From: Escherichia phage T4
Reading direction: 5' to 3' (one strand)
Sequence record: OL964735.1
DNA: 64,000 nucleotides
Shown here: positions 38,934-49,955 of the stretch, piece after piece
Numbering within the stretch: position 1 is the first letter of the stretch
How the letters are laid out: the number at the start of each line of letters is the position of its first letter
Notes under the pieces: generated by a model
The model's input: only the letters and a program-made list of their open reading frames with translations
What the model was told of the DNA's origin: nothing
The model's database searches: none
Position numbers and translations under genes: made by a program

Positions 38934-39344
38934 TCATTTTTTCTTGTGTTGAATATTCCAAGGCGGGTTAAACAGTTTAATGAATAGAGGCTCCTCTAAG
39001 TCAATCGTTGCGATTGTCATTGTACCTAACTCATTTGTCATAGAAAGATTAAAACATTGGCGGGCGTAAAATTCAACTTTGCTTCCTTCCTTTAGCGCAG
39101 AATGAATTAATGCAGATTTAGTAGAATCAGACGTTTTGTCTTTGCGGTTAATAGCAGTTCTATAATAGTTTATTCTTTTACGTAAATTTTTAGTTTTTCC
39201 AATATAAACAAGCTCATCATTTATAGCAATAGCATAAATTACGTTATACTTGTTTGGAATAGATAATTGTTTTATACTTCCATTGTCGTCTAATTCTAGC
39301 TCAGTATATTTAATAAATGAATATTCTGTTGCAATTTCTTTCAT
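38934..39344 (-). CDS. denA: endonuclease II (GIY-YIG-like)
   Basis: track starts at GTG 39368; ATG 39344 gives 136 aa; [16 protein letters not shown] motif. Confidence 0.9.
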
Positions 39345-39371
39345 AATAAAATGGGCCTTGCGGCCCACTCC

Positions 39372-39874
39372 TTAAAAGTATTTTTTAAAACTCATCATAA
39401 CTTTATCATCAACATCATTATCAATCTGTGCAACAAGGTAAGATGACAGTTCTACTTCTTGCGGCGCGGATTGAACATTATCAGAATTAAGATATTCACG
39501 AATCCAAGGATATGGATGTTTAACCGGAGCATCGGTAATTGGGCATGGAAGACCGCACTGTTTCATACGAGATACAGTTAAGTAATCAATAAAGCTCCAC
39601 ATGCTATTTGTATTTAATCCAGGAACATCACCATCTTTAAATAAATGAACTGCCCAGTCTTTTTCCTGGCGGTTAACTTCCATGAAAATATCAACTGCTT
39701 CTTGTTCACACTCTTGGGCAATTTTAACCCATTCATCACCATCAGTACCGGATTGAAGTTGACGAATAATATATTGGGTGCCTTTAAGGTGAAGCTGTTC
39801 ATCACGTGCAATGAACTTCATAATCTTGGCATTACCTTCCATGATTTCCATGTTCTTATGGAAGTTAAAGGTAC
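39372..39874 (-). CDS. nrdB: ribonucleotide reductase small subunit NrdB, exon 2
   Basis: exon boundary inferred from frame, intron ending in G, and restoration of conserved YVSFACTFNF...MEGNAK sequence. Confidence 0.88.
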
Positions 39875-40472
39875 CGTATGTTCGATTGAGCTCGCTAATT
39901 CTCAACCCGTTCTCTTATGAACTGCTGCATGTTACCATGCAGTCCAGACTATATCACAATCCCGGAGGGATTCTCCCCATTTCGAGTCGCTTGACCCTAC
40001 GTCCGAAGACTAGTCGTTGAACCTTGTTTTGCAATTGTCGCCGTGCCATCGTTTATATGTTGATGGTGATAAATCTTTCTTATCACAATATGGACAATTC
40101 AATTGAATTCTATTTGGATTTAATTTACATCTGTCATTATGTTTTAGATAAAATCCAGGACCTTTACCAATGTGACCACAGAAATCACATGTGATTTCTT
40201 TTTGTGCAGGATGGGTCCCGTTCTTAACCATTTCTAATGTTTTTGCTGATGTTCTTTTCTTATGTTCTTCCATCAGAATCTTTAGGTATAGGTCCGTTAG
40301 CATCTATCCAAATTTTTCTATAGTTCAATTGTGCATCCTCTTAAAAGTATAATCATATTTATATTATACTAATTAAAGGTGCAAGCAAAACCTTGGCTGC
40401 TAGTTTTCCATAAAGGACTTTCCAGCAATTAAAGGAGTTTTCGATAAACGTTACCGTTTAAAGGCGCATTTT
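39875..40472 (-). mobile_element. group I intron in nrdB (598 nt) with degenerate homing endonuclease ORF
   Basis: in-frame stop directly after exon 1 U; core shared with td intron (TTTCGAGTC.CTTGACCCTAC); intron ends in G. Confidence 0.85.
40010..40303 (-). CDS. truncated intron-encoded endonuclease (I-TevIII remnant)
   Basis: 97-aa ORF inside intron with CxxC/HxxC zinc-finger-like motifs only; no catalytic domain. Confidence 0.75.
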   Translation of the reverse strand: MLTDLYLKILMEEHKKRTSAKTLEMVKNGTHPAQKEITCDFCGHIGKGPGFYLKHNDRCKLNPNRIQLNCPYCDKKDLSPSTYKRWHGDNCKTRFND

Positions 40473-41136
40473 ACGCAAAAGATACATAAAAACGAATAGC
40501 TTCTAAGGCATTAATAACGTGCAAACAGAGGTAAAGAGATTTCATCAGATCTCGTTTAGCTCTTTGCTCAACGTCTTTATCAGCTAGAATTAGACCTTGG
40601 TCTTTATAATATTCAACCATGTCTTTAGCATTTTCCCATTCACGGGTTTTAACCAAGACATCATCGTAATATCGCCCAATGGACTCAGCACGTTTCATAA
40701 TAGCTTCATCTAATACAATCTCATCAAACACCTTCGATGGATCAGTATAAAGATTTCGCATGATATGAGTATATGAACGACTGTGAATAGTTTCACTAAA
40801 AGTCCATGTAGCAACCCATGTATCAAGGCTTGGGTCTGAAATTAATGACATAAGTACAGCAGATGGCGCACGACCCTGAATGCTATCCAAAAGTGATTGA
40901 TACTTCAGGTTGTTAGTAAAAATATTTTGCTGATACTGAGGAAGCTTATTAAATTGCGCAGCATCCATCATTAAGTTTACTTCTTCAGGACGCCAAAAAA
41001 AACTGATCTGCCGCTCAATGAGTTCTTCAAATACTCGATGTCGTTGAATATCATATCGAGCTAAACCTAATCCAGAACCAAAGAACATCGGTTCATTCAA
41101 AACATCAACTGGATTTGTATTAAAAACTGTACTCAT
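40473..41136 (-). CDS. nrdB: ribonucleotide reductase small subunit NrdB, exon 1
   Basis: exon 1 plus exon 2 total 1167 nt = 388 aa plus stop. Confidence 0.88.
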
Positions 41137-41831
41137 TTAGAATCCTTAAATTTACATTTATCATAATGCCATCTTAAAGCATTGCCTTTATTAACTTTCT
41201 TACCACAGTGCGGGCAAGGTGGATACTCTGCTCCTTGTTTAGTTCTCAAAGAAATCAAATCACGGGTTTCTTTAGTATGAGGAACATCTCTTGTCGGAGA
41301 AATTGTACCATACATCGGATTAAGCACGCCGACTTTAGCAGCAGCTATATTCTTTTTAGCTTCTTCAGTTTTAGGCTTTCTCATCTTTTTCTTAGTTTCT
41401 TCGCTTTTAGCCCTTCCTTTGGTTGCCGCCGATATTTTGTGTTTGGTTTCTTCTGTTAAACGCAGACCTGTTTTCGCTTTTGACATTTTCAGTCTCGTTT
41501 CTTCAGAAATGACCGTACCTTTGCGAAATTGCGAATTTAACTTCTTTGCATGGGCATATATTTTAGAATGAACTTTATAATGACGTTTCTTAGTTCCTTT
41601 CATATTGCACATCATGAAAAATGCGAATATAACAGATTTTACCGGATAAATCTTTGATAAAATAGCATGCGCTATAAAATGCTCTCTAGCTGTTAATTCA
41701 ACTAAATTTTCTTTATCATCAGAACCTCCCATGCATCTAGGGATTATATGATGTGTCTCTTTATATTCGGATAAAGGTTCCCGAGCCTGAGCTCGGGAAA
41801 TTAGGTCGTTATAGATTTTTTGATAATTCAT
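41133..41831 (-). CDS. mobE: HNH homing endonuclease-like protein MobE
   Basis: 232-aa ORF; HHIIPRCMGGSDDKENLVELTAREH HNH motif; wedged between nrdA and nrdB with overlapping start/stop. Confidence 0.85.
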   Translation of the reverse strand: MNYQKIYNDLISRAQAREPLSEYKETHHIIPRCMGGSDDKENLVELTAREHFIAHAILSKIYPVKSVIFAFFMMCNMKGTKKRHYKVHSKIYAHAKKLNSQFRKGTVISEETRLKMSKAKTGLRLTEETKHKISAATKGRAKSEETKKKMRKPKTEEAKKNIAAAKVGVLNPMYGTISPTRDVPHTKETRDLISLRTKQGAEYPPCPHCGKKVNKGNALRWHYDKCKFKDSK

Positions 41832-48291: not shown

Positions 48292-48310
48292 TTTTGTGAA
48301 AAAATTTTTA

Positions 48311-48339
48311 AAATAAAAAAGGGGACCTCTAGGGTCCCC
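48311..48339 (-). terminator. intrinsic terminator after gene 32
   Basis: minus strand GGGGACC-CTAGA-GGTCCCC hairpin followed by TTTTTTATTTT. Confidence 0.75.
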
Positions 48340-48361
48340 AATTAATTAGTAATATAATCTA

Positions 48362-49267
48362 TTAAAGGTCATTCAAAAGGTCATCCAGGTCCGTGTCATC
48401 AGCACTAGATGAACTACCAGAGCTTGAGCTCATAAAATCATCTTCAGTTTTTGTATTGAAGTCATCAACATTGAATGCATCCAAATCATCAGCAACTTTA
48501 TCAGCTTTCTTAGCAGCAGTTGCAGCAGCACCGCCCATCACAGCAGTTCCCATAACTTGACCGAATTTAGTATTAAGTTCTTCAAACGATTTGAATTTAT
48601 CTTTAGAAGTCATTTCAGAAAGGTCAACCATTTGTTCGAACAGTTCTTTCTGGAAAGATTCATCGTCAATGTTTGGAATCGCAGATTGATTCAGGAATTT
48701 AGATTCATCGTAGTTACTAAATCCAGAAACTTGTTTAACTTTCAGTACAAAGTTAGCACCTTCCCACGGACAAGTTACATCAACTGGAGTTTCACCCATT
48801 TCAACATCAACCGCAATCATTGCATTGATTTTATCCCAGATTTTCTTACCGAAACGGTATTTAAATACTTTACCTTCGTTTTCTGGAGCAGCTGGGTCTT
48901 TTACTACAAGAATGTTAGCCCAGTAAGAAGTTTTACGTTTAACAAGACTGTACTCTTTATTGTCAGTGTTGTATAGATCATTTTTACTGATGTATTGACA
49001 TACTGGGCAAGAATCGTAATCACCATGGGTAGATGAACATGTTTCAATATACCATTTACCATTTTTCTTGAAACCGTGATTTACAAGAATTGCGAATGGT
49101 GCTTGTTCATCATTTTTAGACGGAAGAAAACGAATTACTGCTTGACCGTTACCCGCATTATCGAGTTTCAGTTTCCACTCGCCTTTATCTTCAGAAGAAA
49201 AACCTTTATTGCCATTCAGTTTAGCCATTTGTGCAGCGAGTTCAGCAGTAGATTTACGTTTAAACAT
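48362..49267 (-). CDS. 32: single-stranded DNA-binding protein (T4 gp32)
   Basis: 301-aa ORF; zinc site H...CPVC; acidic C-terminal tail. Confidence 0.96.
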
Positions 49268-49337
49268 TTTTATTTCCTTTTTAATTTAATTTAATTAACA
49301 GTTGGTGCTATGACACTTTACCTCATAGCTGGCATAA
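49268..49337 (-). promoter_or_regulatory. gene 32 autoregulatory translational operator (AU-rich tract plus upstream pseudoknot-forming hairpin)
   Basis: mRNA-sense leader GCUAUGAGGUAAAGUGUCAUAGC then UUAAUUAAAUUAAAUUAAAAAGGAAAUAAAAAUG. Confidence 0.7.
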
Positions 49338-49955
49338 TTCGCAATACTCTGGGTCTTCGAGAGGTATCCAACCTGAGTTGAAATACTTTACCATCGATTT
49401 AGCAGTTGTATCAGTTATATTTATATTACCTTTAACTCTTCGCCATCCAGGAGTTTTACCGTACAGATTAGAGGATAATAATAACACATAATTCTCGTAA
49501 GCAATATGAGATAATTTCCAAGACTCTATATTAGCTCGTGATGTTTTCCAAGGTCTAAAATCGTCACGGTTCATATAATTAGCCAATCTCATATGCTCTC
49601 TAACTTCCGGGTCTTTGGCTGGATGAGTTTCACCACTCACACCAAATCCACCACCAGCATATACCAGATTAAAATAGTCTGGATTATCTCTGGCATTTAC
49701 TTCAAGTTGGTATTTTCGTTCTGCTTCAATAACATCCAAGTCATCATCAATTTGAATTATTTTAACGCTCGGTTTTTGAAGCATTAGCGCATTCAAAAAT
49801 CTTTTTTGTTTACATGAGCTCCAGTATTCCTTTCCGGAAGAGTCATATATTATTCCGTTCTCAAATGAGCAATTTAATTTACTACCGATATAGTAGTATG
49901 GCGGAGTCTTATTTTTGACACGGTCTTCAAATGTAAACCAATATACTATATTCAT
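49323..49955 (-). CDS. segG: GIY-YIG-like homing endonuclease (SegG-like)
   Basis: 210-aa ORF; N-terminal IVYWFTF...PPYYYIGSK; inserted between genes 32 and 59. Confidence 0.8.
   Translation of the reverse strand: MNIVYWFTFEDRVKNKTPPYYYIGSKLNCSFENGIIYDSSGKEYWSSCKQKRFLNALMLQKPSVKIIQIDDDLDVIEAERKYQLEVNARDNPDYFNLVYAGGGFGVSGETHPAKDPEVREHMRLANYMNRDDFRPWKTSRANIESWKLSHIAYENYVLLLSSNLYGKTPGWRRVKGNINITDTTAKSMVKYFNSGWIPLEDPEYCELCQL

Follow-up and report, generated by a model that had tools for sequence, protein, structure and literature searches.

The closest described systems come from Escherichia phage T4 itself, which carries a total of 15 homing endonuclease genes (PMC2988022). Among their products, SegG, MobE and I-TevI experimentally drive gene conversion and the exclusion of phage T2 markers (PMC2988022, PMC2790892): for SegG, cleavage of gene 32 and marker exclusion have been reported (PMC2988022), and MobE has its strand-specific nick site at codon 42 of nrdB and mobilises the defunct I-TevIII in trans (PMC2790892). 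Cleavage and homing are listed as 'Yes' for I-TevI, SegE and SegG and as not determined for SegD (PMC2988022). T4 also encodes endonuclease II (EndoII, the product of denA), which has been described without a separate DNA-binding domain and which, acting with low sequence specificity, initiates the breakdown of host DNA that contains cytosine (PMC2764454).

The DNA analysed here (the window) is a stretch of 64,000 nucleotides (nt) of T4, sequence record OL964735.1, and we were concerned with its positions 38934-49955, an interval bounded exactly by the denA stop and the segG start and in which every gene lies on the minus strand. An earlier reading of this DNA from its letters alone (the original prediction) had described the interval as densely colonised by five selfish nucleases, encoded by denA, a degenerate I-TevIII open reading frame (ORF), mobE, I-TevI and segG, and we found all five ORFs exactly where it had placed them, on the minus strand. 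In our view it is very nearly certain that the T4 nrdB-nrdA-td-frd-32-59 segment carries four independently acquired homing endonuclease elements, and that these lead to homing and localized marker exclusion in mixed infections. The elements and the other nuclease genes discussed are as follows:

38934-39368, minus strand: denA, endonuclease II (EndoII), a single-domain GIY-YIG nuclease
39875-40472, minus strand: group I intron of nrdB, 598 nt, placed by Rfam and exon joining
40010-40303, minus strand: I-TevIII remnant ORF, 97 amino acids (aa), the C-terminal part alone
40990-41036, minus strand: 5' region of nrdB with the published MobE nick site (codon 42)
41133-41831, minus strand: mobE, free-standing HNH homing endonuclease of 232 aa between nrdA and nrdB
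44962-45977, minus strand: group I intron of td, 1016 nt, placed by Rfam and exon joining
45109-45846, minus strand: I-TevI, intron-encoded GIY-YIG homing endonuclease of 245 aa
49323-49955, minus strand: segG, free-standing GIY-YIG homing endonuclease of 210 aa between genes 59 and 32
8040-8711, minus strand: segD, free-standing GIY-YIG endonuclease gene between genes 23 and 24, outside the interval
13569-14186, plus strand: segE, free-standing GIY-YIG endonuclease gene between inh and uvsW, outside the interval

The coordinates of segD and segE are those of the T4 annotation shifted by +100, on account of a 100-bp deletion that the window has relative to phage T4T. A megablast search of 50,697 phage records with the interval as query gave several records of Escherichia phage T4 that match it with 100% identity over 100% of the query. 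By local BLAST, T4T (HM137666) equals window positions 36434-52455 with neither mismatches nor gaps, and curated T4 annotations can therefore be transferred directly.

Presence and absence among relatives

We scored the syntenic region of seven relatives (T2, Sf22, slur08, KMB38, a51, RB3 and S16) with the T4 proteins and obtained the following distribution:

T2, Sf22 and slur08 (Tequatrovirus): td intron with I-TevI, nrdB intron with I-TevIII, mobE and segG all absent
KMB38 (Mosigvirus): td intron with I-TevI, nrdB intron with I-TevIII, mobE and segG all absent
a51: td intron with I-TevI, nrdB intron with I-TevIII and mobE absent; segG as a truncated copy
RB3: td intron with I-TevI present; nrdB intron with full-length I-TevIII; a variant mobE allele; segG present
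S16 (Gelderlandvirus): td intron with I-TevI absent; nrdB intron with full-length I-TevIII; a mobE-like gene; segG absent

The NrdA proteins of Sf22 and slur08 are 98.7-98.9% identical to that of T4, and in close relatives lacking the insertions the flanking genes are kept at 94-100% identity. The empty sites in T2, Sf22, slur08 and KMB38 are clean, with flanks of 76-99% nucleotide identity. At the segG boundary, T4 has about 623 bp in place of 35 bp, at the mobE boundary about 698 bp in place of a 55-bp intergenic spacer (Sf22, slur08; likewise 55 bp in T2, a51 and KMB38), and both introns are precisely excised in the relatives that have none. Inserted DNA makes up about 27% of the 11-kb interval.

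In the wider phage collection, the tblastn identity bands refer to the best place in each record, and only the classes of at least 95% protein identity were used, because those of low identity mix in paralogues at other loci. The counts were:

NrdA: 501 records at 95% identity or more
I-TevI: 169 records at 95% identity or more
SegG: 140 records at 95% identity or more
T4-type MobE: 20 records at 95% identity or more, with 99 more at 60-80%
I-TevIII: 125 records over all identity bands, 88 of them full length

The homing elements are present in about 4-34% of the close relatives in the collection, and the dead form of I-TevIII occurs in T4 and about 35 other records. We thus found presence/absence polymorphism at a fixed site for segG, for the td intron with I-TevI, for mobE and for the I-TevIII intron. 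Comparison of synteny had been proposed as a check on the original prediction, and the insertions are indeed not universally conserved, since the introns, mobE and segG are all missing from T2, Sf22, slur08 and KMB38. Given the clean empty sites and the record counts, the insertions are therefore polymorphic, and the finding of repeated invasion is not refuted.

Nuclease domains and the fold of SegG

The architecture of I-TevI was fully recovered by Pfam, with matches to GIY-YIG (E=2e-18), I-TevI_ZnF (E=1e-20) and I-TevI_DNA-bd (E=3e-32), and by the NCBIfam model TIGR01453 (E=1e-56). The hallmarks of the I-TevI/Seg group, namely an N-terminal GIY-YIG catalytic domain and a separate C-terminal DNA-binding module joined to it by a linker, are present. 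MobE matched HNH (E=2.8e-5, 24.6 bits against a cut-off of 21.4) and NUMOD3 (E=4.9e-12). The two genes outside the interval that had been named as further GIY-YIG genes are both there and both match GIY-YIG models: SegD has an above-cut-off match to Pfam SegE_GIY-YIG (E=3e-6) and a match to TIGR01453 (E=6e-15), and SegE matches SegE_GIY-YIG above the cut-off (E=6e-9). Domain searches thus bear out the nuclease folds of DenA, I-TevI, MobE, SegD and SegE, and fail for the I-TevIII remnant; SegG has no match in Pfam or NCBIfam, its fold being supported by other means.

When we compared SegG with Pfam and NCBIfam, no GIY-YIG match was obtained, and neither phmmer nor profile hmmsearch against the Protein Data Bank (PDB) linked it to GIY-YIG proteins. 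BLASTP of SegG against I-TevI gave only a marginal match of 54 aa (E=0.007), in hhalign the single I-TevI sequence could be aligned with the SegG family over no more than a C-terminal fragment, with a probability of 0.4%, and Foldseek ranked the I-TevI structure 1LN0 first, yet with E=1.6. Among the 29 SegG homologues that we collected, none has a precomputed Pfam domain. In an alignment of 24 sequences (SegG and 23 homologues), however, the residues Y5, Y22-I23-G24, E79 and N96 are invariant and correspond to the GIY-YIG signature, and the predicted structure (mean pLDDT 89.8) consists of two domains with a disordered linker at residues 103-108. A GIY-YIG fold for SegG is supported, recovered as it was by structure prediction only; the domain is invisible to Pfam and NCBIfam, which constitutes an annotation gap.

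The SegG homologues (P0002-P0029) share an N-terminal portion of about 100 residues that is followed by one of at least three kinds of C-terminal module, some of which have a zinc-finger-like CxxC motif, and this variety points to domain shuffling in the family. In phage a51, the segG copy (L007 3846-4382) is 98.6-99% identical to that of T4 and is interrupted, leaving an ORF of 178 aa and a tblastn match in two pieces; it exemplifies the decay of a homing endonuclease gene at the site that segG occupies in T4.

Group I introns and the I-TevIII remnant

At Rfam gathering thresholds no match was found in the whole window. Under permissive settings, RF00028 (Intron_gpI) aligned over its full length in both genes, with 40.3 bits (E=9e-8) in td and 35.7 bits (E=2e-6) in nrdB, both below the gathering score of 50, and such sub-threshold scores are expected for introns with ORF-bearing loops. 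When we joined the exons of td by taking out 1016 nt, we obtained a Td protein of 286 aa, 283 of them identical to T2 Td, and taking out 598 nt from nrdB gave a NrdB protein of 388 aa. In both genes the putative exon 1 ends in U (T) and the putative intron in G, and the removal would restore an intact ORF.

The T4 I-TevIII ORF matched nothing in Pfam or NCBIfam. Its alignment with the profile phrog_12324 (269 positions) covers positions 180-269, and that with I-TevIII of RB3 covers residues 181-269 at 95.5% identity. In the full-length enzymes of RB3 and S16, the HNH_3 domain lies at residues 4-48, and the T4 ORF, which corresponds to residues 181-269 and in which we found no HNH catalytic motif, is therefore a remnant without the catalytic domain. 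The word 'degenerate' that had been applied to this ORF is apt: it is the C-terminal third of a 269-aa enzyme from which the HNH part has been deleted, and it is incapable of homing alone. A late-promoter motif, TATAAATA, lies upstream of the remnant at 40363-40356.

MobE alleles and the nrdB target site

Codon 42 of T4 nrdB is CGG, with neighbouring changes, while all five mobE-lacking phages have AAG; T4 nrdB carries a polymorphism resistant to MobE. By windowed folding, we also found a hairpin in the 5' part of mobE (about 41799-41778, dG about -17 kcal/mol) that fits the internal terminator described by Wilson & Edgell 2009 (PMC2790892). A simple terminator scan did not pick up this internal terminator of mobE.

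Two MobE alleles occupy the same nrdA/nrdB site, one in T4 (41133-41831) and the other in RB3 (L010 5208-5939) and S16 (L009 11256-11984). Their first 60 residues or so, which hold the HNH domain, are about 97% identical, while the C-termini are unrelated and carry NUMOD3 in T4 and NUMOD1 in RB3 and S16. We considered whether the RB3 protein could be the published Hef and set this aside, as it has an HNH motif and its N-terminus closely matches, almost identically, that of T4 MobE; it is treated here as a MobE allele. Codon 42 of RB3 nrdB keeps the T2-like AAG, which suggests a different MobE target or a different mechanism of immunity.

Flanking genes and gene junctions

Annotation shows the nucleases interleaved with rnlA, nrdB, nrdA, td, frd and genes 32 and 59, in agreement with the original prediction:

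37757-38881, minus strand: rnlA
39372-41136, minus strand: nrdB, two exons
41831-44095, minus strand: nrdA
between nrdA and td, minus strand: nrdA.1 and nrdA.2
44650-46526, minus strand: td, two exons
46523-47104, minus strand: frd
between frd and gene 32, minus strand: frd.1-3
48362-49267, minus strand: gene 32
49957-50610, minus strand: gene 59

That prediction had the nucleases joined to their neighbours mostly by start/stop overlaps, which overstates the case. Among the free-standing genes, only two of six junctions overlap, and both belong to mobE (TAATG with nrdA, ATGA with nrdB); segG starts 1 nt after the stop of gene 59, the annotated GTG of denA comes 3 nt after the nrdB stop, the downstream spacers of segG and denA measure 55 nt and 52 nt, respectively, and both intron ORFs lie inside their introns. 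It had also called the flanking genes essential. The genes nrdA, nrdB, td and frd are conserved, but they are dispensable on normal hosts.

The small ORFs nrdA.1, nrdA.2 and frd.1-3 were tried as nuclease remnants and rejected, as they match DUF4326, DUF5496, DUF5417, FRD2 and FRD3 instead: nrdA.1 (44086-44412) matches Pfam DUF4326 with E=5.5e-22, and nrdA.2 and frd.1-3 match phage-specific DUF, FRD2 or FRD3 families alone. In T2, Sf22, slur08 and RB3, further small ORFs separate frd from td (RB32ORF229c-like, 348 nt) and frd.1 from frd (L005 7194-7541 and 6003-6592; L011 6168-6515 and 5321-5566). T4 has none of these, its frd and td overlapping by ATGA, and this is an indel polymorphism in which no nuclease is involved. 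Just 3' of the gene 32 stop, at 48321-48339 on the minus strand, there is a strong hairpin resembling an intrinsic terminator (GGGGACC...GGTCCCC and then a run of T), the sole clear terminator match in the module.

Homing, marker exclusion and alternative explanations

In a mixed infection, an active enzyme would cut or nick the corresponding allele in a related phage without the element: I-TevI would introduce a double-strand break into td copies that have no intron, MobE would nick nrdB in a strand-specific manner at codon 42, and SegG would cleave gene 32. Recombinational repair would then transfer the T4 allele to the recipient together with the endonuclease gene and the DNA on its flanks, which is homing, and co-conversion of up to about 2 kb of flanking sequence would result in marker exclusion of T2 alleles. 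The sites of T4 itself would be protected either by the insertion, which disrupts the site, or by local polymorphisms such as the CGG at nrdB codon 42. The dead I-TevIII and its intron may persist because conversion initiated by MobE carries both along, that is, by trans homing (PMC2790892). The free-standing genes seem spliced into the host operons, mobE through its overlaps with nrdA and nrdB and its internal terminator, and segG through the gene 32 promoter that it would carry; such an arrangement could limit the cost of insertion and select against loss. The repeated invasion and the marker-exclusion potential that had been proposed at the outset are both sustained, by the empty sites in relatives, by the different nuclease families and by the published exclusion.

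Some points weigh against this reading. What we could establish from sequence is the identity of the region, the domains and folds, the insertion boundaries, presence or absence, and the immunity polymorphism, and cleavage sites, homing, exclusion and regulation are taken from published work. For MobE, whose gene the authors could not clone, activity of the purified protein has never been demonstrated, and they allow for indirect action (PMC2790892). Both intron matches fall short of the Rfam gathering score, and the tblastn bands count one best place per record, with paralogues mixed in at low identity.

The endonuclease genes could instead persist mainly because they are useful or even indispensable to T4, through embedded promoters and terminators or through a competitive edge over co-infecting phages, an explanation that overlaps with the one we prefer and is compatible with it. 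A late-promoter motif for gene 32, TATAAATA, is found inside segG (49425-49418), about 150 nt upstream of gene 32, mobE contains its terminator hairpin, and the published middle promoter of nrdB is associated with the mobE 3' end (PMC2790892, PMC2988022); moreover, the dead I-TevIII has persisted in T4 and some 35 other records, and SegB has recently been reported to aid immune evasion (PMC13096335). However, the majority of close relatives thrive with none of the four elements, phages with the empty sites have their promoters in the intergenic spacer (PMC2790892), and decayed copies exist in the form of the T4 I-TevIII remnant and the truncated a51 segG. As the main cause of persistence, we regard usefulness as unlikely.

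A possible extension of the homing reading concerns the spacing of the targets. Those of the three active enzymes (nrdB codon 42, the td intron site and gene 32) lie about 3-5 kb apart, and co-conversion tracts are reported to extend about 2 kb to either side. Such tracts might thus nearly tile the module at 39-51 kb, so that it would be inherited in crosses as one 'super-selfish' block, and, separately, the MobE alleles (NUMOD3 and NUMOD1) might differ in their targets and compete. We find both ideas rather doubtful, and if true they would be modest extensions of known biology.

It could also be argued that the clustering has no significance, four homing genes having come to lie within 11 kb by chance and without any special affinity for nucleotide-metabolism genes. 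When we placed 15 homing endonuclease genes at random in 168.9 kb, at least four fell in some 11-kb window in about 52% of placements, so that the local count by itself does not exceed what chance would give. The claim of dense colonisation does not hold in this sense (simulated P of about 0.5), and of the five homing-type nucleases on which it was founded, four are of that type, one of these lacking its catalytic domain, and denA is not. A better argument for a hotspot is recurrence at the same sites. S16, a Gelderlandvirus, independently contains an I-TevIII intron in nrdB as well as a mobE-like gene, the nrdA/nrdB site is occupied by the two MobE alleles with NUMOD3 and NUMOD1 C-termini, hef replaces mobE in phage U5, and in Aeh1 mobE lies inside nrdA (PMC2988022). 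The literature calls the nrd region a hotspot (PMC2790892, PMC2988022), and the accepted explanation is the targeting of conserved, functionally critical sequence. Chance as the sole origin of the clustering appears improbable to us.

denA is a conserved phage gene

DenA was included among the selfish nucleases in the original prediction, which was right about its GIY-YIG fold and wrong about its selfishness. The protein corresponds to the solved EndoII structure (PDB 2WSH, E=6e-88), and GIY-YIG was its sole Pfam match above the cut-off (E=4.8e-6, 27.2 bits against 22.6). We found DenA in 1148 records at 1148 places, that is, as one copy each, and full-length in 1146; at 95% identity or more, it occurs in 497 records and so tracks NrdA with its 501. 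The gene was found in all seven relatives examined, including Mosigvirus and Gelderlandvirus. Tested as a homing endonuclease, denA showed neither presence/absence polymorphism nor mobility, and the 136-144 aa of DenA form a single domain, with no additional DNA-binding module that could confer specificity for a long site. It is outside the list of 15 T4 homing endonucleases, and the term denA occurs 0 times in that review (PMC2988022). denA is an ordinary conserved phage gene and not a selfish or homing element, and its common fold can mislead one into calling it selfish.

That all five nucleases, denA included, are homing-type selfish elements is accordingly a reading to which we give almost no probability: the GIY-YIG domain and the 3-nt spacer to nrdB speak for it, but the single copy that follows NrdA, the presence in other genera, the lack of a DNA-binding module, the lack of polymorphism among close relatives, and the published low-specificity role in host DNA degradation (PMC2764454) all speak against it.

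The annotated start of denA is the GTG next to the nrdB stop. PHROG profiles and orthologues (Sf22 and others) begin at an ATG eight codons downstream (39344) and align from residue 9. The true start is likely this ATG, giving the 136 aa of classical EndoII, and the annotated N-terminal extension (39344-39368) may not be real.

Differences between the window and other records

Relative to T4T, the window has two exact deletions of 100 bp, one at 34886/34887 in cd.3 and one at about 63440 in arn.2. Neither is flanked by direct repeats, and each would frameshift a small non-essential ORF. The deletions are in none of the T4 records among the matches listed, each of which aligns as two pieces spanning 100 bp more, and they look engineered or introduced while the window was prepared. 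Seven single-base differences from T4T (341, 6774, 9308, 11932, 59205, 61662 and 61841) are all outside 36434-52455.

In the reference AF158101, the mobE stretch is split into nrdB.1 and a shorter mobE, whereas T4T and the window have one ORF of 232 aa. AF158101 differs from the window by 16 mismatches and 3 gaps over 16 kb, and the split is probably an error in the older reference sequence. The NrdA encoded in OR584013.1, labelled 'Pseudomonas phage PsgM02F', matches T4 NrdA at 99.6% identity. Such a host name seems at odds with a Tequatrovirus, and the record may be contaminated or mislabelled.

Comparison with known systems

The region is the model system itself and is already known: its elements, their families, distribution and regulation, and the exclusion between T2 and T4 have been published since the late 1980s and were reviewed in 2010. 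Our analysis has little discovery value in this respect, and its use is that of a positive control, in which a mobile-element hotspot was recognised from sequence alone.

DenA is the same protein as T4 endonuclease II (2WSH; Lagerback et al. 2009, PMC2764454), with the GIY-YIG fold. Unlike the homing enzymes, EndoII is tetrameric and of low specificity and acts on cytosine-containing host DNA (PMC2764454); it is not mobile, and it is conserved across Tevenvirinae. I-TevI and the td group I intron (PDB 1LN0, 1I3J) are the same element as the one found here, the GIY-YIG, zinc-finger and DNA-binding architecture being recovered without differences. segG is the former gene 32.1 (Liu, Belle, Shub, Belfort & Edgell 2003, J Mol Biol 334:13, in PMC2988022), with the same place between genes 59 and 32 and again no differences.

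The arrangement around nrdB is that of the MobE trans-homing system (Wilson & Edgell 2009, NAR 37:7110, PMC2790892), in which mobE is placed between nrdA and nrdB, with the nrdB intron about 700 bp downstream of it; both the codon-42 polymorphism and the internal terminator are reproduced, and nothing differs. Finally, the set of 15 T4 homing endonuclease genes (Edgell, Gibb & Belfort 2010, Virol J 7:290, PMC2988022) is the same object, six of the 15 being present here (I-TevI, I-TevIII, mobE, segG, segD and segE), with family, insertion site and target tabulated in that review. In sequence there is no difference, the identity to T4T being 100%, and denA is an addition of the original prediction.

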